Of a stretch of 64,000 nt of DNA, positions 50,676 through 63,646 are shown piece by piece (within the stretch, counting starts at the first letter, position 1; each line of letters begins with the position of its first letter). The stretch comes from a virus (lineage: Duplodnaviria; Heunggongvirae; Uroviricota; Caudoviricetes). The notes beneath the pieces are model-generated. The model saw only the letters and a program-made list of their open reading frames with translations. It searched no databases and was not told the origin of the DNA. The DNA lies in the IMG/VR virus record IMGVR_UViG_3300042349_000626. The stretch is one strand, 5' to 3'. A program made the translations under genes and the position numbers.

Positions 50676-50700
50676 AAAGGGGGCTTACGCCCCCTTTTTT
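50676..50700. terminator. Bidirectional terminator between convergent genes
   Basis: AAAGGGGGC-ttac-GCCCCCTTT. Confidence 0.8.
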
Positions 50701-52037
50701 TATATGCCGGTTTTCTTTAATCTATTATTAATAAAATCACTTGACTTGCCATAAAGATTTGTCTTTCTAAAATCAGATAAAAAGGCATCTAAGTATGTTG
50801 GTTTGAGTAAATAAATTTCTCTCTTTTTTTCATTCTGTTCTTCTTCGTATTCAAATACATATACTGGTCTACATATTTGAACCCCATTTATTTCTACTGT
50901 AGTAGTGCCATTAAAATATTTGATTCCATTTCCGGTTTTTCTTTTCCAATTTTCTCCATCGTACTTCCAGTAAACTCCATCAATTAAATACGACGTTGGG
51001 CTTAATTCTACCACTTCATAATCTAATGGAGTGGTTTTTTGGTATGAACCAATAAATTCTATACTACGTATTCCATAATGATCGTTTCCTGGACCACTAC
51101 TATTTGCTTGATATAATCTAAAGTAAGTATTATTTTGCTTGGCTCCTTGAGGTATATTAACCGAGTATAGATTCAATTCATTTCCAGCATTTCCGGCTCC
51201 ATCGTCTGTTGTTGGTACAATAATACCCATATTAATCCAACCAGATGGGTTAGTAGAACCGACTTGATATTGTATTCTTAGTTCTTCTTGACCAGCAATG
51301 TCTGGTGTTTCTCCACCATTAAGATCGTTTCCACGAATTACTAATCCAGTTATTGTATTCAAATTTGTAGCATCAATTGGTTTTAATGTTGCCCATCTTT
51401 CGCCACTTTTAATCTCACCAAATTTTAGATGATTGCCAATACCAAAGCCACCATCATCTCCTGCTCCAGTTCCGTTTGTAGCAATGTATGTACCATTAAA
51501 ATCTAAAATGTTTCCTGGAATTCTTGTATCTATAATTTTAGATATTGGTATTGTTTCTACCGTAGGTTCTGTTTGTGGTAACGTATCGATAACAAATGTC
51601 TCTTCTGAGTTATAAAAATTTTCATCTACAATTGTGCCACCTTTCAATATTACTTGACCAAACATTTGTGTTTGTTCTTTATCATCGATAACTTTATAAT
51701 GTTTTATTGTTGAATAAGGATCGTCGTATGTAGATTCTAAAAATTTTCTTAGGTCATTCTGACTTAATGGTAAATCAAATAATGGATTTATCATATTGTT
51801 TGTCAAAGCAATAACCCAATCAAAGAAAGGATTTCCATATGCTTTTTCTGCTATAGTATCTAAACGCTCTCCTTCTTCTATAGAATACTTTTTAAAGTAT
51901 ACTGCATAAGAAAATACATCTGGGTTAACTTGATATCTTCTGAAGAAATTTTTAGCTACAACAAAATCAGATTCAGAGAATGGATACTGAATTGGTTTTT
52001 TATCGTACTCGATATTAGGAATGAATGAGAAATACAT
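50700..52037 (-). CDS. gp53: Baseplate wedge protein with a large inserted domain
   Basis: YSIEEGERLDTIAEKAYG...DWVIAL...INP; C-terminal FEYE...NEKKREIYLLKP. Confidence 0.88.
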   Translation of the reverse strand: MYFSFIPNIEYDKKPIQYPFSESDFVVAKNFFRRYQVNPDVFSYAVYFKKYSIEEGERLDTIAEKAYGNPFFDWVIALTNNMINPLFDLPLSQNDLRKFLESTYDDPYSTIKHYKVIDDKEQTQMFGQVILKGGTIVDENFYNSEETFVIDTLPQTEPTVETIPISKIIDTRIPGNILDFNGTYIATNGTGAGDDGGFGIGNHLKFGEIKSGERWATLKPIDATNLNTITGLVIRGNDLNGGETPDIAGQEELRIQYQVGSTNPSGWINMGIIVPTTDDGAGNAGNELNLYSVNIPQGAKQNNTYFRLYQANSSGPGNDHYGIRSIEFIGSYQKTTPLDYEVVELSPTSYLIDGVYWKYDGENWKRKTGNGIKYFNGTTTVEINGVQICRPVYVFEYEEEQNEKKREIYLLKPTYLDAFLSDFRKTNLYGKSSDFINNRLKKTGI

Positions 52038-52038
52038 T

Positions 52039-53151
52039 TTAGATACCCTCTCCTGTTTCTGTATCTACTTCGCCAGCAAATACTAACTTTGATTCTAGGA
52101 ATGATATGGTTAATTCTGTTGCCACTGGAGAACCGTCTCCCATTGTGGCGTATGCCCCAGCAGCAGTGTAGTTAATACTTACGTCAGTAATACCACACAA
52201 TTTATATTTTGGTAAGAATGGATGAATGCCAGATCCTTTCATAAAAAGAACTTGACAAAGATCTGGAATCGTTATTAGATTTGCTGTTTCTTGAGAAGCG
52301 CCAAAAATTGCTTGACCTCCAAATTTAGGAAGCATTGCTTTTTTAAATATATTACAAATTTGTTTTATATCTTTAGCTTCTTTTCCTGTCCGAGGAACCA
52401 GTTTAAATTTCAAACTAAAGTTTCTTAGTTTGGGTGCTTCGTAAGCAAGTTCTACGTTAGGGTTTAAGATTGTTCCTGTAACTGTTCCTAAGGCTTGATT
52501 TAAATTAATATTTGCTCCAGCAACAGCATTTATTCCAGAAATAAGAGCATTAAACGTAGCTGCTTTTACCCCACCCATAGCTGAGCTAGTTCCTGCTTGA
52601 ACTAAAGCACTCCAATCTTTTTGGTTATTGATAGATCCAGCAACTCCAAGCATACCAGCAGCCGCTGCTCCAAACCCAGCTCCATTCCATCCAGCCCCAA
52701 ATTGAGTTTGAATATCTTCTGGCATATAAAGAATAACTGATTTTAAACCAGAAGGATTTTTATATGATCTATCACTGGAATCTTGGTAGTTAGAATATCC
52801 CCATGGGTTACTGGGAGATTTTGATGCTGAATTTGCATCTGCTCTATTTGGAGTATCTCTTCCTCCTCCAAAAGGTGGAGCGTAGCTATAAAAACTAAAC
52901 AATACATAATCACTATCTGCTTCGATTGCCGCTGGGTCAGAAGGATATCTTACAGAACTGCTTCGATTATTTGGTAGTTGTATGTTTAATTTAATTGGTT
53001 CTTCTTTTGTTGGGTTGCTGCCTCCTCCCGATTTATTAGCAGGATTGTTTTCACTTTTTGCCCACACTGCTTCCGGCACATACTTAGTACCATCCCAAAA
53101 TCCAGGAACTGTGCCAGCGGCGTTTTCTTTTTTTTCTCCTAACTGTGGCAT
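52039..53151 (-). CDS. gp48: Baseplate tail tube cap
   Basis: VILYMPEDI, ILNPNVELAYEAPKLRNF, ELTISFLE. Confidence 0.85.
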   Translation of the reverse strand: MPQLGEKKENAAGTVPGFWDGTKYVPEAVWAKSENNPANKSGGGSNPTKEEPIKLNIQLPNNRSSSVRYPSDPAAIEADSDYVLFSFYSYAPPFGGGRDTPNRADANSASKSPSNPWGYSNYQDSSDRSYKNPSGLKSVILYMPEDIQTQFGAGWNGAGFGAAAAGMLGVAGSINNQKDWSALVQAGTSSAMGGVKAATFNALISGINAVAGANINLNQALGTVTGTILNPNVELAYEAPKLRNFSLKFKLVPRTGKEAKDIKQICNIFKKAMLPKFGGQAIFGASQETANLITIPDLCQVLFMKGSGIHPFLPKYKLCGITDVSINYTAAGAYATMGDGSPVATELTISFLESKLVFAGEVDTETGEGI

Positions 53152-54014
53152 TACTTGACCCTCTCTATGTCTTTCCTGTTAGTTCCTTTTATGATCCTTG
53201 TGCCTTTGATACGATCATTCCAGTGTTGGTTAATCTCTTCCCAAACATATTCTTTTGGGTATTCAATTTTTCCATCACCTTTCATTAGCACGAAATCTTC
53301 TACAGGAAGAGCAGAAGCAGACACCCATTCTTCTTTCGCTAAATCTAAGAACAAACTTTTACATCTTTTATAAAGATATTTATGAATGATTACTTTGGGA
53401 ATATCTATCTGACCTTTCTCCAATTTATTCACAACGATTAATCTTTTCTTTGGTTCTAGATAATGTAAATTAGCTCCCCAAAATTCTCCACCAGATACTT
53501 TCATTACATATAATAAAGGATACTTATCATAGTACGGAAGGTCTGGTGTTTCTGCTTTATATTCGAAAAAACATAAGTGACCAGGAAATAATTTACGACG
53601 ATTTACATTCTGATCTTGGTTAACCAACGCTCCAATTGAATCAAATTTTTCCTGCTCATTCATACGAGAGGGCTCTGTTTGAACACTAGCACTTAACGTT
53701 TTAAGTTTTGCTTTGTACCATAGTAAATTTTTTGCTTCTCCCTCAGTTTCTTCTTTTATTTTTTCAAATATCGTTAATCGCCTTTGTTTTTTTCCTGCTT
53801 GTTTAAATCCCTCAGTTTCACTTACCGCTTGTGCTAACTCATTCATATCTTTGTATGAAGAGTAACGTTTTATGCCATACTTAGAAGCAAGAGCACGTAT
53901 TTGATCACGAGTGTAATTACTTAATGATGGTAACTCATGACCGCTCAAATAAGACCATCTATCAATAGCATCTTTAGCATATGATTTTGGCTTTAAATTA
54001 TTCTTAGCTGCCAT
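53151..54014 (-). CDS. gp2: DNA end protector protein with an N-terminal extension
   Basis: FFEYKAE...LPYYDKYPL, GANLHYL. Confidence 0.8.
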   Translation of the reverse strand: MAAKNNLKPKSYAKDAIDRWSYLSGHELPSLSNYTRDQIRALASKYGIKRYSSYKDMNELAQAVSETEGFKQAGKKQRRLTIFEKIKEETEGEAKNLLWYKAKLKTLSASVQTEPSRMNEQEKFDSIGALVNQDQNVNRRKLFPGHLCFFEYKAETPDLPYYDKYPLLYVMKVSGGEFWGANLHYLEPKKRLIVVNKLEKGQIDIPKVIIHKYLYKRCKSLFLDLAKEEWVSASALPVEDFVLMKGDGKIEYPKEYVWEEINQHWNDRIKGTRIIKGTNRKDIERVK

Positions 54015-54015
54015 G

Positions 54016-54453
54016 TTATACTCCTAGATGATCTTCTGTGAGAATTAAAAACTTCATCTGTCTATCTTCACAGAAGTCTTCTGCTGCTGCCCACTTGGCA
54101 CGGTTCTTCATGTAGGTTAGGACTTCTCTTTTCCAAGCAGCAGTTTTTCTTTTTGGTTTCTCGACTGGACCAGCAACTTGTTTTTTTGGTTTAACTTCAA
54201 TCAAATACTTATTAATATTTCCTTCTTTATTTTTAACTTTGATGTAGAAGTCTGGAAAGTATCTATGAACTCTACCATCAGTAGGACAACGATAGGGAAT
54301 AATTACTTCTTCACTTCCCCACTCTACAATACTATCGTTGCCATCACAAAACACCATAAACTTCCGCTCCCACATAGAACGGTAGATAATTCTTGTAGGG
54401 TTTCCTCTATATTTTTTTGGATTCTTTGGTTTGTAGATTCCAGAATAAGCCAT
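54016..54453 (-). CDS. gp4: Head completion nuclease
   Basis: MAYSGIYKPKNPKKYRG, YRSMWE, HRYFPDF, EVKP. Confidence 0.92.
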   Translation of the reverse strand: MAYSGIYKPKNPKKYRGNPTRIIYRSMWERKFMVFCDGNDSIVEWGSEEVIIPYRCPTDGRVHRYFPDFYIKVKNKEGNINKYLIEVKPKKQVAGPVEKPKRKTAAWKREVLTYMKNRAKWAAAEDFCEDRQMKFLILTEDHLGV

Positions 54454-54482
54454 AAATAAATATATCCCTCCGACTATATTTA
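54453..54482. promoter_or_regulatory. Divergent pair of late promoters
   Basis: TAAATA on + at 54453-54458 and on - at 54477-54482. Confidence 0.55.
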
Positions 54483-54484
54483 GA

Positions 54485-55192
54485 GTGGCAAAAGGATCAA
54501 TAGACAACTTCATATCAGCCATAGCTAAGAATGGCGGCATGGCAATGTCGAATGGCTATGATGTTGAATTTGATTTTCGTGGAAAAGTTGATCTAGAAAA
54601 ATATATAAAAACTATTGGAGTAGATTTGCCTGCTAAAAGTGATAGTGGGGAAGCCGGAGCATTAATTAATTTGTTTTGTGACGAAGCACAACTACCGAAT
54701 ATTTCCGCTGCTACTGGGCAAATTACTGGAAGGTATTTGGGAGAAGGTACTATCAATTATCCTCATACTAGAATAGTAAGTGACTTCAATCTTTCGTGGA
54801 TGTGTGATGCTAACATGATCCCATTTAAATTTTTAAACGCTTGGCACGAGTATATTTTTGGGCAAGATAAAATTGAAAATCGAGTTGGAACCGATAGATT
54901 TTTGAGAGATGCTAAAGCAAATGACGCCAAAACAAAACTAATTAACAGAACAAATCGCCTTAGATATCCTGATCAATATCAAACTACGTTAAGAATATCA
55001 AAAGCAGAACGAGGAGCTAATGCTCCAAATGAAAGAGTTTCTTTAGTTTGTGTGCTTGAAAATGTATATCCATATTCCATAGATGCTGTTCCTATGTCTT
55101 ATGGATCATCACAAATAACAAGAGTGAGTGCTAGCTTTTATTATACTCGCCACACATATTACAACTACGACATCCGTAATTATAGAGGATAA
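54485..55192 (+). CDS. Tail tube initiator / tube-fold protein (gp54-like), GTG start
   Basis: CDEAQLP, YPYSIDAVPMSYG, VSASFYY. Confidence 0.65.
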   Translation: MAKGSIDNFISAIAKNGGMAMSNGYDVEFDFRGKVDLEKYIKTIGVDLPAKSDSGEAGALINLFCDEAQLPNISAATGQITGRYLGEGTINYPHTRIVSDFNLSWMCDANMIPFKFLNAWHEYIFGQDKIENRVGTDRFLRDAKANDAKTKLINRTNRLRYPDQYQTTLRISKAERGANAPNERVSLVCVLENVYPYSIDAVPMSYGSSQITRVSASFYYTRHTYYNYDIRNYRG

Positions 55193-55220: not shown

Positions 55221-55934
55221 ATGGCATTACCAAAAATTGGAATTCCTACTTACGAATTAGAGTTGCCATCCACAGGCAAAACAATTAAGTACAGACCTTT
55301 TGTAGTGAAGGAAGAAAAGGTTTTACTACTGGCATTAGAATCTGAAGATGAAAAAGAGATTAAAAATGCCGTCAAAGATCTGATTAAAAATTGTGTTCAA
55401 ACTAGGATTAAAGTTGATGACTTGCCTAGCTTTGATTTGGAATATATCTTTTTACGAATTCGTGCTGCTTCGGTTGGAGAAGAAATTAGTATGATTGTCA
55501 CTTGTCAAGATGACAATAAGACTCAAGTTGAAGTAACCATTAATTTGAATGAAGTTAATGTGTTTAAACCTGAAGGACACACTAATAAAATTATGCTTGA
55601 TGATATCACAGGCATTGTTTTGAATTATCCTGGCATGGATAGATTTATTGATTCTGAATTTTTGAATAAAGATATTAAAACTGATGAAGTAATTAATTTT
55701 ATTGCTGATTCGGTTGATCAAATTTTTAACAGTGAAGAGGTGTGGGATTCTTCTACAACTTCTAAAAAAGAAATGAGAGAGTTTATAGAAGGTCTTACTG
55801 CTAAACAATTTGAACCATTACAAAAATTCTATGAAACTATGCCTAGGCTAATTCATAAATTCAAAGTAATTAATCCAAACACTGGCGAAGAATCCGAATA
55901 TACAATTGAGGGACTACAGAATTTTTTCGTATAG
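55221..55934 (+). CDS. gp26: Baseplate hub assembly protein / putative tail assembly chaperone
   Basis: YRPFVVKEEK, DLEYIFLRIRAASVGE, ends GLQNFFV. Confidence 0.9.
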   Translation: MALPKIGIPTYELELPSTGKTIKYRPFVVKEEKVLLLALESEDEKEIKNAVKDLIKNCVQTRIKVDDLPSFDLEYIFLRIRAASVGEEISMIVTCQDDNKTQVEVTINLNEVNVFKPEGHTNKIMLDDITGIVLNYPGMDRFIDSEFLNKDIKTDEVINFIADSVDQIFNSEEVWDSSTTSKKEMREFIEGLTAKQFEPLQKFYETMPRLIHKFKVINPNTGEESEYTIEGLQNFFV

Positions 55935-56110
55935 CACTCTTCCAGAATAGCCTGGAGGGGTACTTTAGAACTAATTTTGCTTTGATTCAGTATCATAAAT
56001 ACTCTTTAGCAGAAGTAGAAAATCTTATTCCTTGGGAAAGAGAAGTGTATACATCTTTGTTAATTCAACATCTTAAGGAAGAGGAAGCAAAGAGAGCAGC
56101 TAATCAATGA
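55922..56110 (+). CDS. gp51: gp51-like C-terminal module with no ATG; probably made as a -1 frameshift fusion to gp26
   Basis: -1 frame reads RIALFQNSLEGYFRTNFALIQYHKYSLAEVENLIPWEREVYTSLLIQHLKEEE; ends with an ATGA overlap into the next gene. Confidence 0.8.
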   Translation, partial: FFRIALFQNSLEGYFRTNFALIQYHKYSLAEVENLIPWEREVYTSLLIQHLKEEEAKRAANQ

Positions 56111-59100
56111 TACCCGAGAAGGCGATAAAACCAATAATAAAAAACGGCAGGGACAATACTGAAATTGCTGTTGGAACTCTTATTGCCTATGGTGTTTTTC
56201 CTCACACAACTGAGGGCATAGAAAAAGCTAAGAAGCTAATTGAGGAATCTGAAAATTGGTTGGTGCCATCACAACTACCAGATTATTATGATGGTATTGA
56301 TAGTGATTTAATTGTTGGTAGAGAGACTCCAGGTATTTTATCAATAAGAAGAAAATTAAAAGAGTTTTATAAAATCTCTGCTGGCACAGAAGAATTTATA
56401 GATACAACTGTATACACTCCAGCAGATAAATTTGTTGATGATGGTAAAGAATTTGCTGTAAAAATAGAAACTGATCTTGAAGATGCTTTAGAAAAAACAT
56501 CTGACGAGATCATGGATTCTATTGATGAGATTCTTAGACAAGATCAGGAAAAGTTTGAAGAGTTTAAAAGAAAACAAGAAGAAGAATTAAAGAAAAAAAT
56601 TGAGAAACTTAATACACCAGAAAGAGTTTCTCAAGAACTTACAATAAAAATTCCTCCAGCTCATTATATACAGGGAACTGCTGGTAGATGGCAACCAGAA
56701 TTTGAAAATGATATTGATCATGCCGTATACTTTGCTGGCAAATCTTCATTACCGAAAGGAGCAAAGCAAAGAGAAGTTCTTGATTGGTTAAAAAGTTTAG
56801 GCTTAACGTTTGAACAAATACATAACCACCGTGAGAAAGTATTAGATCAAATTCGAGAAACTATTTCTCTTCCTGGTGTGGAAGAAGAGTATCCATATGT
56901 TTATATTGATGCTGTCGATCAAGATTTTGTACTGGAAGATGATGAGGAAGACTATGAAGATCTTGAAGAAGATTTTGATGGATTAGATGATCTATTAAAT
57001 GAGGTTAGAAATGAAGAACAAATTTCCGAAAAAGAAGTAGCTGATAATATTGAAGAAGAAATCATCGATGCTGCCGAGGATGAAGAAGATCCTATGGCTG
57101 ATGCTGATGTAGACATACAAGCCATATTGGATGGGGATGAAAACGAAACAAAAAGTATTACTGAAAAATTAACTGACACAATAAACAAACCTAAGAAAGA
57201 ATCTTCTTACGCTAGCAACAAAAAAATTCTGGATTCTATTACCGTAAACTTTGGAAGAATACAAGAAACATTAAACATTGTAAATCGTAATTTAGAAGAA
57301 CAGAATACATTAATAAGAGCAAACATTGATACACAACTTGCTGTCGGTGATTTAATAAGTAATCAGACAGATCTTTTGGCATCTAAATTTGATTTGATAT
57401 TGGAACATTTTGAAAGACAGTTACAACATTCTGAAGAACTTGATGAAGCAGAAAAAAGAAAGGCGAATGAATCTAAATTAGAAGCACAGCGTGATGCTGC
57501 TGGGTCTTCTGACTTTCGAGATCTTACACAAGGTGGTGGTAAATCAAAAAGGCAATCTAAAATTGGATTATATTATAGAAGAAAACTTCTCAGAAAATTA
57601 TACAGAAAAACTCCAAAAAAATTAAGATCCTTAAGGACTAAAGCAAGAAAACTTCAAAGGGTTCCTGACAAATTAAAAACTTCTGCTGCTAATAGAGTTA
57701 CCCAAATGTTGCCTAAGCGAGCAGGTAAAGCTGTTGGTAATTTGAGATCAGTAAAATCTGTTGGAACAAGACTTCCTGGAGTAAGACAAGCATTTGCTGC
57801 TTGGGAATATTCTGATAGAAAGGCTGCCGGACAATCCGATGTTCAAGCGTTGGCTGGTGTTGGTGCTGGCCTAGGTGGGGCTGCCGCTGGGGGTGCTGCT
57901 GGAGCTGCTACAGGGGCAGCGATAGGTGCTGCTTTAGGATTACCTTTCTTTGGTATTGGAGCTGCTCCTGGAGCTGCTATAGGCTCTGCCATTGGTGGAA
58001 TTCTTGGGCTTGTTGGTGGATTTTTTGCTGGAAATGCCGCTTCCGATGCTGCCGATAAGCTTACTGGAGCAGATCAAATTGATAATCAGTATGAAACTGG
58101 TGGATTAACTAAACCAGGAACGGCAATACTTCATGGTACTGAAGCAATTATTAATCGTGATGCTATTGATATGTCACCATTGAATACTCTTGGTGGCATA
58201 ATGATTGCTTCGACCACAGAGTATATTAATTCTGCTGGTGCTGTAGCTGCTCCCATAGCACCTTCATTGAGAGGTGTATCAACACAAATGGCGAGACAAT
58301 ATGATGTTCCTGCTACTTTAGCTCAAACCAATGTTGGTGGTACTTTGCCTAAGATAGATAATGAATTGAAAAAAGTTAGGGAAAAAAGAACAGGTGGTGA
58401 TCAAGAAGAATTCTCTGGTCAAGAAAAACAATTATTAGAAACAACAGATGAAGATAATTTTGCTGAAAAATTATTAAAGATGATAGATCCAGATGAAAAA
58501 TTCCTTAGTATACTAAAGAATATTAATAACAGAAACCCTTTGTTGCCCCCAGAAGATTATGATGGCACAGGAATTGATGGAGATTTGGAAGGAAATATAG
58601 TAAACCCAATGGAAGGTGGGGTTATGGAAGATTATCCTGGTGCTAAGTTTGGTGCTTCTAGAGATGGAGGAAAGAGAAAACATAAAGGTAGGGATCTTGT
58701 TGGTCCTCCTGGAATGAAAGTTGTATCTGCTTTGCCAGGAACTGTCACTGGTATAATTGATGTTGGCAAATTACCTGGAGGTGGGTGGAGCAAAGGAATA
58801 TATGTGAAACATTCTAATGGTATGGAAACCCGCTATCTACACGTACATCCATCTGTAAAAGTTGGCGATCAAGTTAAAGCTGGACAACAAATTGCTAAAA
58901 TTACAGCAATGGATGATATTAGTTCTGTACCACACCTACACTTTGAAGTTATTGTGAATGGGCGACATGTTGATCCAGAACCAATTGTGAGAGGATCTTT
59001 AAAGATGAGTGATATAGCGGCAGGAAAAGTTCCTGGGCTTTCTGTGAAAGCACCTAAAAATCCAGCTGAAATTGAAAACCATAGTGGAACTGAAGTTTCT

Positions 59101-59574
59101 GATAAAACTCCGCCGTCATCTCCACCATCTTCTATGGCAACTCCTCAGCAAGTATCTTCTACTTCTACAATTGCTGAGAAATTAGTAGCACAAACATTAG
59201 AATCCGATGGAAGCATGGATGGCATGGTTGCTGCTACGTATGGAGCAGGAGTTCCTAAAACTCCGAGATGGATGCAAGAAATAGAAAGGCAATATAATGA
59301 AGTTAAAGATAAGCCATTTAGTCCAGGAACACCGAAGCCAGGAAGAGGAATGGGAGATACGTGGCTCCCTAAGGCGTCATTGGATCAAGGTAGTCAAATT
59401 GCTAGTTTATCTAGATACGAACAAGAATCTGAAAGCAATACGGTATTAATTAATAATCAATCTTCGCCAATGCCAGCAATGCCTTCTTCCGGAGGAACAG
59501 AAATTATTCAAATGGGTGGAGTTAGTTCTTCTGAGTTATTAAAAAGTTTGATGTTACAAAGATTAAACGCCTGA
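56107..59574 (+). CDS. Tape-measure / baseplate hub-like protein with an M23 peptidase domain
   Basis: Coiled coils, G/A-rich hydrophobic segment, HKGRD...HVH...HLHFEV. Confidence 0.75.
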   Translation: MIPEKAIKPIIKNGRDNTEIAVGTLIAYGVFPHTTEGIEKAKKLIEESENWLVPSQLPDYYDGIDSDLIVGRETPGILSIRRKLKEFYKISAGTEEFIDTTVYTPADKFVDDGKEFAVKIETDLEDALEKTSDEIMDSIDEILRQDQEKFEEFKRKQEEELKKKIEKLNTPERVSQELTIKIPPAHYIQGTAGRWQPEFENDIDHAVYFAGKSSLPKGAKQREVLDWLKSLGLTFEQIHNHREKVLDQIRETISLPGVEEEYPYVYIDAVDQDFVLEDDEEDYEDLEEDFDGLDDLLNEVRNEEQISEKEVADNIEEEIIDAAEDEEDPMADADVDIQAILDGDENETKSITEKLTDTINKPKKESSYASNKKILDSITVNFGRIQETLNIVNRNLEEQNTLIRANIDTQLAVGDLISNQTDLLASKFDLILEHFERQLQHSEELDEAEKRKANESKLEAQRDAAGSSDFRDLTQGGGKSKRQSKIGLYYRRKLLRKLYRKTPKKLRSLRTKARKLQRVPDKLKTSAANRVTQMLPKRAGKAVGNLRSVKSVGTRLPGVRQAFAAWEYSDRKAAGQSDVQALAGVGAGLGGAAAGGAAGAATGAAIGAALGLPFFGIGAAPGAAIGSAIGGILGLVGGFFAGNAASDAADKLTGADQIDNQYETGGLTKPGTAILHGTEAIINRDAIDMSPLNTLGGIMIASTTEYINSAGAVAAPIAPSLRGVSTQMARQYDVPATLAQTNVGGTLPKIDNELKKVREKRTGGDQEEFSGQEKQLLETTDEDNFAEKLLKMIDPDEKFLSILKNINNRNPLLPPEDYDGTGIDGDLEGNIVNPMEGGVMEDYPGAKFGASRDGGKRKHKGRDLVGPPGMKVVSALPGTVTGIIDVGKLPGGGWSKGIYVKHSNGMETRYLHVHPSVKVGDQVKAGQQIAKITAMDDISSVPHLHFEVIVNGRHVDPEPIVRGSLKMSDIAAGKVPGLSVKAPKNPAEIENHSGTEVSDKTPPSSPPSSMATPQQVSSTSTIAEKLVAQTLESDGSMDGMVAATYGAGVPKTPRWMQEIERQYNEVKDKPFSPGTPKPGRGMGDTWLPKASLDQGSQIASLSRYEQESESNTVLINNQSSPMPAMPSSGGTEIIQMGGVSSSELLKSLMLQRLNA

Positions 59575-59609: not shown

Positions 59610-62234
59610 ATGTCGGCAGGCACACAGGGTTTTACAGATACTCGAAAAGATACTAATCACATTGGTGCTGTTATTAGTAAGGTGCTTGAGGCAAGAAAAC
59701 TTGCTGAGCAAGAAAGGGAATACGCTGAATCAGTAGCAGAAAAATATCAAACCTCACTAGAAGAATCTGGAATACAACGAGGATATTTTTTCAAGAAAGC
59801 ATTAAGATGGAAGTTTGGCGGGGAATTTAAAGCTAAGAAACAAGCACAGTTACAAACTTGGAAATCTCGTGCTGACTTATTTAAATCTGCTGCCACTGGC
59901 AAATCAGGCAGGAATAAACTAAACAAGTTTGAAAGATCACAAGCGATCTTTGATATGTTTAAATCTGGTGATAAGCCAAAAACATTTAGAGATAAATTTA
60001 AACTATTATACGAAGGATTTGTAGACGATCCGATGACTAGACCACAAAGTCATTGGGTTAAGCCAGGAGCAAGAAAGAAAATACAAAAAGCAACTTCCAG
60101 AAGTAATCGTGTAAGTAAAGAAGATATTTTAAATTCTCTTTCTGCTATTACTGATTCAATTGAGAGAGTTGCTGAATCTATATCAGAAAAAAATAAAGTA
60201 ATTGCTGATCAGATGGTTCATTCATCTGTCTTACAAGGCATGATGCACCAGCAGCTTAAGACAAGTAATGATTCTTTAGAAGATAAATTACAAAAAATTG
60301 TTGATGTTTTATCTAATCAAACTCAATACCAAAAACAATCTGTAGATAAAATTGAAGCAAAATCTGCTGAAAATAAATTAGAAAGACAAAAAGATGCTGC
60401 TAGTATAGTTAATTTTGATGACCTCACTACTAAAGAAGATGAGAGTAAAATAGCAGCAACTTCTGCTCAGGACATGGAGTTCCAGCAAATGTCTGCTTAC
60501 GAGCAGAATGACATACCACAAGCAGAAACTGGCGGTATTATTTCTGGTCCTGACAGTGGGTATCTTGCCAAACTTCATGGCAACGAAATGGTCATTCCAT
60601 TAGATAATAATTATACACAAGGAGAACCTAGTGCTATTGATGGGAAGGTTAGACCTAAACCACAACAGCCTATTGCCACTCCAAAAAGTATTGAATCAAT
60701 GCCCAAGTATGAAATGGGCACCAGTAAAATTGTTAATAATTATCCTAAGTATGAAATGGGGAATAGCACAGTAAATTCTGCTCCCATAACGTCTAAGTTT
60801 GGATTTAATACTACTCAAAACATTGTTGGTAATGCTGGAGGAGGAACTACCGAAAGTTCTAAATTAACTCAATCAATGGTTGATGTGATGTCGTTACCAA
60901 TGATGGCTGCTGGAGGTACATTACTTTCGGCAACTACAAAGTATATGCAAAGTTTGGGTGGGGAAGGAGCAAATATAAACCCCGAAATAGAAAGAGTATC
61001 GAGACCTATTGCCAACGTATTTGGATTGCCTCCAACAATAGTAAGTGCTGCTAAGGGAAGCACTTCAAGAAGAGCTGTTGGGGAGGAAGAACAAAAAGAA
61101 GACGGCGAATCCAAGAAAGATTTATTTGCTAAACTCACTGATGGGTTTGGTAAGTTACTTGAAAAACTTGGTAATAGTATTAATAATAGACCAACAGATA
61201 CTACTACAGATGATGACACAACAGGAAACGGTCCAGGTGGAAGTGGTCAAGATTTTGCCACATTAGCAACTATTGCTGCTCTAGAATCTGGGTCTGCTCA
61301 AGGACAAGCTGATGTTGCTCAATCTGTATATAATAGATTGGGAGATACTGGTCAAATGTATGGGAAATCTATTACAGAAATTTTAACTAGAGATAATCAA
61401 TATCAAGTAGCTTTTAAAGATCCGAATGCTAGTAGTGGCGAGGGAGCAAAAGTGGCAGATGTATTTAAGAATATTAAAAACGAGGATGATGCTGCAAAAG
61501 CAATCATGTATTATTATTCTAAACGAGGTAGACCAGTAACTGAAGAACAGGCAAGACAAATGTATCGCTCATCTGCTAAAGCAATTTCTGATGCTAAATT
61601 GAGAGAAAATGCTGCTAGACATGTTGGCGGCAGAACTGAATTTTTGGGTAGAGGATTAGGGGGAGCTGGATCTGTTTCTAGAGGCGGTGGATCAGATAAT
61701 GATTTTTTTGCTGCTTATGGATCTAGAACACAGATGGCTAGAGGAGCACAAGCAGCGCCATCTGGATTATTTAATGCTCCCTCACCTTCTCAATCAGCAC
61801 CTCCAACACCAGCACAACTTGGTCAAGCAATAACGAGTAATTATGGTCTTAAAGTTGGTCAAGAAAGACAATTCACCCACCCAGAATATGGAACAATAAA
61901 AGCACATAAAACAGCAACTGGATTTGATTTTTATGATGGTCCTACAAAACTAGATATGTCTAAACCACAAGGTAAAGCAATTGTGGAATATTTTAAATCT
62001 ACTAACGGTGGGCAACAAATATCTCCACCACAAGCAGGACAACAGATATCTTCTCTTTCAACTTCATCTTCAAAATCTTCTGGTGGAGGAATAACTGTAT
62101 TAAATACAGGTGGTGGGCAACAAATTGCTTCTGCTGGTTCGAGTCCTCAACCATCTGCTGATGGTGGGGTAGAATCTGGTAGAAATCCTACTCAAGATTT
62201 CTTTAGTAATTCATTCTCGTTAGGTGTAGGATAA
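59610..62234 (+). CDS. Second tape-measure / hub-like protein with a SleB/CwlJ-like hydrolase domain
   Basis: TIAALESG...DVAQSVYNR...EILTRDNQYQ; ETGG...LHGNE module shared with the upstream gene. Confidence 0.7.
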   Translation: MSAGTQGFTDTRKDTNHIGAVISKVLEARKLAEQEREYAESVAEKYQTSLEESGIQRGYFFKKALRWKFGGEFKAKKQAQLQTWKSRADLFKSAATGKSGRNKLNKFERSQAIFDMFKSGDKPKTFRDKFKLLYEGFVDDPMTRPQSHWVKPGARKKIQKATSRSNRVSKEDILNSLSAITDSIERVAESISEKNKVIADQMVHSSVLQGMMHQQLKTSNDSLEDKLQKIVDVLSNQTQYQKQSVDKIEAKSAENKLERQKDAASIVNFDDLTTKEDESKIAATSAQDMEFQQMSAYEQNDIPQAETGGIISGPDSGYLAKLHGNEMVIPLDNNYTQGEPSAIDGKVRPKPQQPIATPKSIESMPKYEMGTSKIVNNYPKYEMGNSTVNSAPITSKFGFNTTQNIVGNAGGGTTESSKLTQSMVDVMSLPMMAAGGTLLSATTKYMQSLGGEGANINPEIERVSRPIANVFGLPPTIVSAAKGSTSRRAVGEEEQKEDGESKKDLFAKLTDGFGKLLEKLGNSINNRPTDTTTDDDTTGNGPGGSGQDFATLATIAALESGSAQGQADVAQSVYNRLGDTGQMYGKSITEILTRDNQYQVAFKDPNASSGEGAKVADVFKNIKNEDDAAKAIMYYYSKRGRPVTEEQARQMYRSSAKAISDAKLRENAARHVGGRTEFLGRGLGGAGSVSRGGGSDNDFFAAYGSRTQMARGAQAAPSGLFNAPSPSQSAPPTPAQLGQAITSNYGLKVGQERQFTHPEYGTIKAHKTATGFDFYDGPTKLDMSKPQGKAIVEYFKSTNGGQQISPPQAGQQISSLSTSSSKSSGGGITVLNTGGGQQIASAGSSPQPSADGGVESGRNPTQDFFSNSFSLGVG

Positions 62235-63646
62235 TGTCAGATAATTTAAAACCTTATGCTTCTAGTTTTCAATTAAAAAGTGTTGTTATATACCGAGTAA
62301 AATCAAGTGAGTCATATGATATTACTGATTTAGTTCAGCGTTTTGATTACTTCGAAAGCATTACATCTCCTGTCATATCTGGCACGTTAGTTATGGTAGA
62401 TTCGGGATCTAATTTAATATCATCACTACCTATCCAGGGAACTGAGCGTGTTGTAATTAATCTGATTGCTCCAAACAATGAACAGCATGAGTATGACTTG
62501 AGAGTTTATAAAATTGGTAGTAGATTTGGAGCAGAAAGATTCCAAACGTATACCTTAGGTTTGATTTCTCAAGAAGGACTTCTCAACGAAGGGATCCGAG
62601 TTACGAAAACCTTGAGTGGCAAATCTAATAAAATTGTGAGTGACTTGCTAAAAGATTATTTAAAAACAGATAAAGATTTGGAAGTGGAAACTACTAAATT
62701 TAATATCATTTTTAATGCCGGAAAAAAATCTCCGTTTGCTATCATCAATAGTATTCAATCAAAATCTGTTTCCGATTCTAGTACATCTAAAGTAACAGAA
62801 AGTAAAAAATCTTCTAAGTCATCTCCTTCTGATAATAAAACTGTATCTTCTTTAAAACCAGTTGATAGTTCTGACTACGGCAGTGTAACTGGTAGTGCTG
62901 GTTATTTTTTCTTTGAAAACAAGGATGGGTATGTGTTTAAATCAATTGATACTCTATGTTCTGGTGTTAATTCTGCTGGAACTTATTTTCAAGAACCAAT
63001 TGATGTAAACTCTCCTCCAGATAAAAAGATATTATCAATTGATTTTTTAAATGAGATTGATATTCTAACTAAATTAAGAACAGGAGCATTCTCTTCAGTA
63101 ATTTGTTACTACAACTTCAGCACTGGAGCATATGAAGAGTATACTTATTCACTAGACAAAGCTTACGATAGTATGAAACATATGGGATCCCAAAAAGGAT
63201 TGCCTTATGGTCAAAAAGAATTATCTAAGTATCCTACTCGTGTTATGAGTATGATATTAGATCACGAAACATGGTTTGATGGTGAAGAAGCTGCTTCCCC
63301 AGAAAAAAGAGATGGTGAAAATGGAGCAACTCAATTTCCTGATTATCAAAAATTTTACATGGCACAATCTATATCAAGATTGAATTCATTAACAAATCAA
63401 AAAGTAAAAATAAAACTTAACGGATCACCAGCAATTAAAGTTGGAGATGTAATTGACATCATGATTCCTAATCAGGTAACACAGCAACAAAAGATAGTTG
63501 AAAAATATGATCCAGAACATAGCGGAACGTATTTAATTTCTGAGGTTAATCATGTATTTAATCCTAAGCAGAGAAGATGCTATACGTTCTTAACTTTAAT
63601 TAGAGATTCATATGGCATGAAAGATTATGCCTCCAAAACACAATAA
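62234..63646 (+). CDS. Baseplate hub protein (gp27-like position)
   Basis: YFESITSPVISG, YFFFENKDGYVFKSID, HSGTYLISEVNH; directly before gp5. Confidence 0.6.
   Translation: MSDNLKPYASSFQLKSVVIYRVKSSESYDITDLVQRFDYFESITSPVISGTLVMVDSGSNLISSLPIQGTERVVINLIAPNNEQHEYDLRVYKIGSRFGAERFQTYTLGLISQEGLLNEGIRVTKTLSGKSNKIVSDLLKDYLKTDKDLEVETTKFNIIFNAGKKSPFAIINSIQSKSVSDSSTSKVTESKKSSKSSPSDNKTVSSLKPVDSSDYGSVTGSAGYFFFENKDGYVFKSIDTLCSGVNSAGTYFQEPIDVNSPPDKKILSIDFLNEIDILTKLRTGAFSSVICYYNFSTGAYEEYTYSLDKAYDSMKHMGSQKGLPYGQKELSKYPTRVMSMILDHETWFDGEEAASPEKRDGENGATQFPDYQKFYMAQSISRLNSLTNQKVKIKLNGSPAIKVGDVIDIMIPNQVTQQQKIVEKYDPEHSGTYLISEVNHVFNPKQRRCYTFLTLIRDSYGMKDYASKTQ

Follow-up and report, generated by a model that had tools for sequence, protein, structure and literature searches.

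One gene of a T4-like cyanomyovirus very probably encodes both a short and a long tail assembly chaperone (TAC), the long form being the predicted product of ribosomal -1 frameshifting at the heptamer U UUU UUC. This gene was found in the IMG/VR virus record IMGVR_UViG_3300042349_000626, of which a stretch of 64,000 nucleotides (hereafter the window) was analyzed; the window is part of a T4-like cyanomyovirus having 65-72% nucleotide identity to Synechococcus and Prochlorococcus myoviruses. The finding is carried by the signals present in the sequence, by their conservation and covariation among relatives, by the homology of both parts of the predicted product to gp26 and gp51 of T4 and by a chaperone-like fold. 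Ribosomal slippage is the best explanation because the phase of the heptamer is kept everywhere, the T at a synonymous site is kept, most loci have only six T and a covarying stem lies at the canonical distance. The original prediction, which had been made from the sequence of the window alone, compared this junction with the G/GT frameshift of lambda; its observation is confirmed and its interpretation is supported, the mechanism being very probably a ribosomal -1 frameshift that a stem-loop stimulates in this clade, and the window is a further instance of an apparently known finding.

The short form is encoded in frame 0 by a gene of the + strand (55221..55934) whose 237-aa product, gp26 or TAC-N, matches PF12322 with a score of 233.8 bits (E 2.3e-69; curated cut-off 24.5) and phrog_150 (E 4.5e-75). 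The last codons of this gene are AAT TTT TTC GTA TAG: the slippery heptamer T TTT TTC (55922..55928, + strand) is in X_XXY_YYZ phase and the 0-frame stop TAG (55932..55934, + strand) comes one codon past it. The -1 frame is open from 55910, behind a TGA at 55907-55909, and runs to another TGA at 56108-56110; it overlaps frame 0 on 22 nt only (55910-55931) and the heptamer is located inside this overlap. A slip on the heptamer would join 236 residues of gp26 to the 60 codons of the -1-frame extension (55928..56110 including TGA, + strand), whose product matches the gp51 profile phrog_634 (“baseplate hub assembly catalyst”; E 3.8e-25), giving a predicted fusion of 296 residues, the long form or TAC-NC. 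The predicted junction peptide is ...GLQNFF-RIALFQNSLEGYFR and its predicted tryptic form is ...GLQNFFR followed by IALFQNSLEGYFR. The 60 residues past the slip are encoded without any ATG or GTG (the first TTG is at 55982), and the final TGA overlaps the ATG (56107) of a tape-measure-like gene in an ATGA. Re-reading of the sequence showed that the end of gp26, the place of the heptamer, the junction peptide and the coordinates had all been given correctly in the original prediction, as had the 60-residue extension devoid of ATG and its end on the tape-measure-like gene. It should be emphasized that the heptamer alone is not rare, since 54 copies of TTTTTTC were counted on both strands of the window compared to 42 expected; therefore, the weight of the argument rests on its conservation.

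Seven nt after the heptamer lies a stem-loop (55936..55961, + strand) that is a likely frameshift stimulator. Its 10-bp stem (arms 55936-55945 and 55952-55961; six G-C, two A-U and two G-U pairs) closes a 6-nt loop, and its minimum free energy (-15.5 kcal/mol, z -3.4) is the lowest among all 45-nt segments of its own 4-kb stretch. A Shine-Dalgarno-like GAGGG (55908..55912, + strand), read from the sequence 9 nt upstream of the heptamer, might be a second stimulator. However, it overlaps Glu-Gly codons, of which only the GG of Gly is invariant, and because of this coincidence a Shine-Dalgarno-like role is not separable from protein constraint. In dnaX of E. coli, -1 frameshifting relies on an upstream Shine-Dalgarno-like element, a heptamer and a downstream stem-loop, and the shifted frame ends early. 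The anatomy is the same here (GAGGG, X_XXY_YYZ heptamer and stem-loop after a short spacer), and 9 nt is also the spacing between element and heptamer that stimulates -1 slippage in dnaX. Nevertheless, the two genes are unrelated, the shift leads to a shorter product in dnaX and to a longer one here, and the Shine-Dalgarno-like role of GAGGG is a guess.

According to the mechanism that we propose, the gene starting at 55221 would encode a tail assembly chaperone, and most ribosomes would stop at 55934 and release the 237-aa short form. A minority of them would pause over the stem-loop with two tRNA-Phe on UUU-UUC, slip one base back on U UUU UUC and read the -1 frame to 56110. The long form obtained in this way (296 aa) would end in a module of 60 residues, folded as three helices, that corresponds to the C-terminal part of T4 gp51. 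If the two forms work as G and GT do in lambda, their common N-domain would coat the product of the next gene, the tape-measure protein, and the extension would connect this complex with hub or tube proteins. The ribosomal nature of the slip, its efficiency and the binding partners are the parts of this mechanism that we infer.

Conservation of the junction among T4-like phages

The comparison was based on a first set of 80 IMG/VR loci related to gp26 of the window (59-100% identity), to which three cultured cyanophages and four distant T4-like phages (Methylophilales phage Melnitz, Vibrio phage phi-ST2, Caulobacter phage Cr30 and Sinorhizobium phage phiN3) were added, together with a further 163 IMG/VR loci related to the distant four, gp26 identity going down to about 30%. 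Both gp26 and the extension could be placed in 244 loci. In 243 of them, belonging to cyanophages, KVP40-like vibriophages, rhizobiophages, Cr30 and Melnitz-like phages, the -1 frame is the one that encodes the extension, and the overlap holds an in-phase T TTT TTN (TTTTTTC in 175 loci, TTTTTTT in 39, TTTTTTA in 28 and TTTTTTG in one). The alignment of gp26 3′ ends that the original prediction had proposed thus found the heptamer kept in all loci except one, and the lack of conservation that it had considered fatal does not apply. The sole exception, L061 (IMGVR_UViG_3300002040_000003), has an indel inside gp26. Its gp26 match spans 710 nt, with a one-base length anomaly that breaks the frame about 60 nt before the heptamer and is probably an assembly or sequencing indel. 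The distance from the heptamer to the 0-frame stop is 0 nt in 49 loci, 3 nt in 183, 6 nt in two, 9 nt in three and 24 nt in six; since this distance varies while the heptamer stays, the heptamer and not the stop is the constant element.

Within the clade of the window, variation was analyzed on about 60 unique junctions (63 for entropy, 60 for stem and codon-usage counts). The heptamer is invariant, and its seven bases as well as the next G have zero entropy, three of these sites being synonymous, compared to a mean of 1.44 bits for 0-frame third positions upstream of the heptamer. Phe is encoded by TTT in 73% of cases elsewhere in gp26, and NNT TTT TTC, expected in about 12% of the junctions, was observed in 60/60. 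The three-base periodicity of variation changes from the 0 to the -1 frame exactly at the heptamer. From +6 and over the first 54 nt, the entropies of the three -1-frame codon positions are 0.41, 0.29 and 1.09, a periodicity as strong as further downstream. Judging from such sequence variation, the extension is under purifying selection. Furthermore, among the 182 unique junctions of the whole set, only four have an ATG, GTG or TTG in the -1 frame upstream of the heptamer, and the first ATG is absent or more than 33 nt downstream in 135. In 12 of these 182 junctions, a -1-frame stop abuts the heptamer and, therefore, the frame can be entered only there.

The stem-loop also shows a conservation that follows its pairing. 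At least nine of the 10 stem pairs are kept in 45 of the 60 unique clade sequences; 87.7% of the cells are paired in register, compared to 36-63% after a shift of the 3′ arm by 1-3 columns, and double-change cells number 36 in register versus 0-16 in these shifted controls. Stem pair 15/38, for instance, is C-G in 32 sequences, G-C in 14 and A-U in three, a switch that combines a Leu/Val change on one arm with the matching synonymous Gly change on the other. The 10-bp hairpin had been correctly placed 7 nt past the heptamer by the original prediction, and the covariation that it advised looking for is found in the clade of the window. In the S-PM2 subclade, this place is occupied by another stem, of about 13 bp and rich in AU, and the clade L230-L255 has yet another one (11-12 bp). 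A search of Rfam gave no family match at 55700-56300.

Some observations weigh against ribosomal frameshifting as a general explanation or against the chaperone assignment. First, the TTTTTTT and TTTTTTA loci have no stable downstream structure (median percentile 0.55-0.64 among segments of their own locus); the stimulator would thus be clade-specific and not universal, and the hairpin-less clades might recode differently. Second, an ATG is found within 18 nt of the heptamer in 37 of the 182 junctions, often overlapping the stop (KVP40-like phages, Cr30 and phiN3), and coupled re-initiation could add to slippage in these three groups. Third, the Z scores of the fold matches presented below (7.7-7.9) are lower than 8 and fall in the range where the tool itself says that two structures possibly have only a common arrangement. 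It is conceivable, but in our view rather unlikely, that the recoding of one orthologous gene is clade-specific, with hairpin-stimulated ribosomal slippage in the clade of the window, unstimulated or transcriptional slippage in the clades with seven or eight T or with TTTTTTA, and a hard-wired duplication in T-even phages. The T TTT TTT and T TTT TTA clades (L084, L125-L129 and L178-L228, whose relatives are Melnitz and pelagiphage-like contigs) have conserved, just past the stop, a pyrimidine-rich GCCCT(C/T)TC. This motif encodes Ala-Leu-Ser-His and could be either another stimulator or only the result of protein constraint.

Transcriptional slippage would produce the same two proteins if the RNA polymerase dropped one U (or added two) in the T run and the edited mRNA were translated normally. 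The conserved element is indeed a homopolymeric run of 6 to 8 T, and this process is most plausible for the clades with seven or eight T, which, as those with TTTTTTA, are devoid of downstream hairpin. However, productive transcriptional slippage in bacteria usually needs at least nine T and its known stimulating hairpins sit upstream, whereas the heptamer has only six T in the window and in 204 of the 243 loci, and the covarying stem located 7 nt downstream is a classical ribosomal stimulator. Moreover, the X_XXY_YYZ phase and the T at the preceding synonymous site are found in 243/243 loci, and this phase is required for the re-pairing of tRNAs on the ribosome but not for polymerase slippage. 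Taken as a whole, these data make transcriptional slippage improbable.

Somewhat less probable still is that the -1 open reading frame is a separate small gene, annotated as gp51 in RefSeq, which would be translated either from a start codon of its own or by ribosomes re-initiating past the stop of gp26. RefSeq does annotate it in this way in S-PM2, S-CAM3 and other phages, and in the KVP40-like phages, Cr30 and phiN3 the stop of gp26 overlaps an ATG (TAATG or TGATG), in line with the nearby ATG codons mentioned above; the heptamer is nonetheless kept in these phages. In the window, the extension has neither ATG nor GTG, and initiation at TTG 55982 would cut 18 conserved residues that show -1-frame periodicity. 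Among close relatives, the first start codon is found anywhere between +9 and +102 nt, and the annotated starts are not the same. Separate initiation would leave the invariant heptamer and its synonymous sites without any reason. The heptamer persists even where the stop is 24 nt away, and in T-even phages the module is found only fused to a gp26-like domain. The original prediction had named a start at CTG 55952 or TTG 55982 as a possible objection. Both were rejected: the -1-frame periodicity begins at the heptamer, the protein sequence of the stretch that holds the two codons is conserved, and relatives do not keep either of them as a start. A sequencing or assembly indel that split the gene, or a downstream frame that is only a dead remnant, is hardly credible: L061 does have an indel inside gp26, but independent metagenomes and cultured isolates together give 243 loci with this arrangement, the extension appears to be under purifying selection, and the 120 closest database proteins listed have 225-238 aa (118 have exactly 237) and cover the full query, except one that covers 95% of it. 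The read-level indel that the original prediction had also considered was rejected, as dozens of independent contigs and isolates show this arrangement.

Relationship with gp26 and gp51 of T4

The two predicted products correspond to two separate proteins of T4. Both T4 gp26 (208 aa, E 9e-64) and T4 gp51 (249 aa, E 4e-52) match PF12322, which agrees with the paralogy mentioned in the original prediction, and residues 147-246 of T4 gp51 match phrog_634 (E 1.2e-23), the profile that is also matched by the extension. The gp51-like nature of the -1-frame peptide, proposed at the outset, is thus borne out by profiles; the extension also matches the last 42 positions of the gp26 profile phrog_150, and its pairwise BLASTP comparison with the C-terminus of T4 gp51 gives E 0.001. 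Since both T4 proteins match PF12322 and gp51 matches phrog_634 in addition, T4 gp51 consists of a gp26-like body followed by the module found in the -1 frame of the window. Furthermore, when the fusions predicted for the window, Melnitz, phiN3, Cr30 and phi-ST2 are aligned with five T-even gp51 proteins, no gap is needed through the junction, and the terminus of T4 gp26 (...EFFEL) coincides with the 0-frame terminus of the window (...NFFV). The gap-free alignment and the end of T4 gp26 therefore provide independent support for the site and for the direction of the shift. Together with the conserved signals, this alignment supports the 237-aa gp26 and the predicted 296-aa gp26-51 fusion announced in the original prediction.

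In T4, gp26 and gp51 are hub assembly chaperones (Leiman et al. 2010, PMC3004832). The 0-frame product of the window is equivalent to gp26 and has the same end, and the predicted trans-frame product has the domain order of gp51. However, T4 has two hard-wired genes located on opposite strands and needs no heptamer. Two PF12322 genes were found in the five T-even-type phages that were checked (T4, RB49, 44RR, RB16 and Acinetobacter phage Octan) compared to only one in the five others (S-PM2, phi-ST2, Cr30, phiN3 and Melnitz). This difference in gene number and the collinear alignment support the proposal that gp26 and gp51 of T4 are a duplicated and hard-wired version of a G/GT-like pair. In RB16 (L260, HM134276.1 62487-63800), the paralogues are in tandem on one strand, in the order gp54-gp51-gp26, with an overlap of 8 nt, whereas gene 26 is inverted in T4, RB49, 44RR and Octan; the tandem of RB16 resembles an intermediate of the duplication.

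A maximum-likelihood tree of 49 proteins places the single-gene forms on one side of a branch (support 99/94) and also groups the T-even gp51 (100/100) and the T-even gp26 (90/68). The single-gene forms of KVP40-like phages adjoin the T-even node, and KVP40 is classed in Straboviridae, as is T4. This topology, inferred from protein sequences, would fit a single duplication on the T-even stem after the slip was lost, with a polarity that is itself an inference as the tree is unrooted. In the Octan record MT409116.1 (L261), gp26 as well as gp51 is labelled “tape measure protein assembly chaperone”, so that the chaperone reading is already present in some annotations. Most members of the family have a CxxC-type zinc-ribbon motif that the protein of the window lacks.

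Chaperone fold and gene neighborhood

An AlphaFold2 model of gp26 built from 82 sequences (mean predicted local distance difference test score, pLDDT, 93.7; predicted template modelling score 0.88) was compared with 48,161 PDB representatives. The top three matches, 2ob9 (HK97 gp13, Z 7.9), 3fgx (Rbstp2171, Z 7.7) and 3klu (YqbN, Z 7.7), are the three solved phage tail assembly chaperones (PMC9603447). They cover 84-85 residues each within residues 1-95 of the model, and the next, unrelated match has a Z score of 4.3. Foldseek found no PDB match at E <= 0.001, the HK97 chaperone being a weak hit (E 0.6, probability 0.89); gp26 matched no Pfam Phage_TAC family at E up to 0.1, and a profile search of PDB sequences retrieved no chaperone. 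The relation of gp26 to tail assembly chaperones is thus visible only in the predicted fold and in gene order, and the model suggests a chaperone fold for residues 1-90, with the caution due to Z scores below 8. Residues ~88-237 weakly resemble zinc-ribbon-like folds (Z about 3). The extension modelled alone with AlphaFold2 forms three helices (pLDDT 85), and when a complex of the 60-aa extension with the gp54-like tube initiator was predicted, both runs scored 0.00, a result that speaks neither for nor against binding. In BFVD, the gp26 model has matches at E <1e-5 in myoviruses that are far from T4: Ralstonia phiRSL1, Bacillus SP-15 and BCD7, Campylobacter CP220 and a “cysteine-rich protein” of Ackermannviridae. 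According to such model comparisons, the chaperone family may be much wider than PF12322 suggests.

The chaperone gene (55221-56110) is located between a tube-like and a tape-measure-like gene. Immediately upstream, a gp54-like tail tube initiator (Phage_TTP_2; 54485..55192, + strand) matches PF23849 (E 2.2e-53) and phrog_45; downstream, a 1155-aa tape-measure-like protein (56107..59574, + strand) carries an M23 peptidase domain (PF01551, E 3.5e-20) and has weaker PHROG matches to tape measure and tail lysin families. A tube-like gene followed by gp26 is likewise annotated in phi-ST2, phiN3 and RB16. The order of lambda V-G-T-H is the same, and tube, chaperone and tape measure genes follow one another likewise around lambda gpG/gpGT, around the tail chaperone genes known for a conserved -1 frameshift (Xu, Hendrix and Duda 2004, cited in PMC9024508) and around P2 E/E+E′. 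As in lambda, the N-domain seems to have a chaperone-type fold and the long form is predicted to be a minor, C-terminally extended product. However, there is no detectable sequence similarity with lambda G/GT, the 0-frame stop is here one codon past the slip site, and gp26 has, unlike lambda G, a second domain of about 145 residues. The heptamers also differ, that of lambda being G GGA AAG compared to U UUU UUC here.

Further upstream, the - strand encodes a gp53-like wedge protein (50700-52037), a gp48-like tube cap (52039-53151), a gp2-like DNA end protector (53151-54014) and a gp4-like head closure protein (54016-54540). On the + strand, the tape-measure-like gene is followed by genes for an 874-aa protein (59610-62234) with a weak Cell Wall Hydrolase match (PF07486, E 3e-4, below cut-off) and for a phrog_350 tail protein (62234-63646), then by the start of gp5 (63670 onward). 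The 1155-aa and 874-aa proteins are consecutive and either is a candidate tape measure; the former has a Gly/Ala-rich hydrophobic stretch. With the GTG listed as its start (54485), the gp54-like gene shares 56 nt with the 5′ end of the gp4-like gene, which is divergent, and many homologues have 212-225 aa; the real start may be an internal Met ~19-21 codons in.

Prior reports, annotation and significance

A poly-T -1 slip in TAC-N genes of T4-like phages was reportedly described, as citing papers give it, by Vladimirov, Gautam and Davidson (Virology 2022, 566:9-15). One of these papers refers to “polyT-containing sequences” as “known -1 frameshift signals” in “TAC-N genes of T4-like phages”, citing Vladimirov et al. 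2022 (PMC12846349). In the literature on gp26, gp51 and frameshifting, the slip was found only through papers that cite this 2022 work. As far as can be judged from such citations, the system described there and that of the window share the PF12322 family, short and long forms, a poly-T -1 signal at the 3′ end of TAC-N and, in T4, a short gene accompanied by a fused long gene. The core of the finding, i.e., gp26 and gp51 as chaperones, their hard-wired pair in T4 and a poly-T slip in other T4-like phages, therefore appears from these citing papers to have been already published in 2022. Since the core idea was apparently published, the value of the window is that of one more well-documented instance and not that of a discovery. 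The clade-specific stimulators are possibly useful too, if the 2022 paper does not cover them.

The practical point concerns annotation. Stand-alone “gp51” genes are annotated with inconsistent starts, encoding 57 aa in S-PM2 and 37 aa in S-CAM3, and none is annotated in S-CAM1; in the window, no conserved start codon and ribosome binding site of its own was found for a stand-alone gp51. This inconsistency favors the suspicion, already expressed in the original prediction, that the stand-alone cyanophage annotations are wrong, and a joined coding sequence (CDS) with ribosomal slippage is most probably the correct one. In hundreds of cyanophage records, a “baseplate hub assembly catalyst” stands as a CDS of its own with an arbitrary start, or none at all, and these records could be corrected accordingly. 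Overall, the G/GT rule, which is nearly universal, would with this work also hold for the largest group of marine myoviruses. If recoding is indeed clade-specific, this family would be a natural series in which recoding signals have been gained, exchanged and finally replaced by gene duplication.

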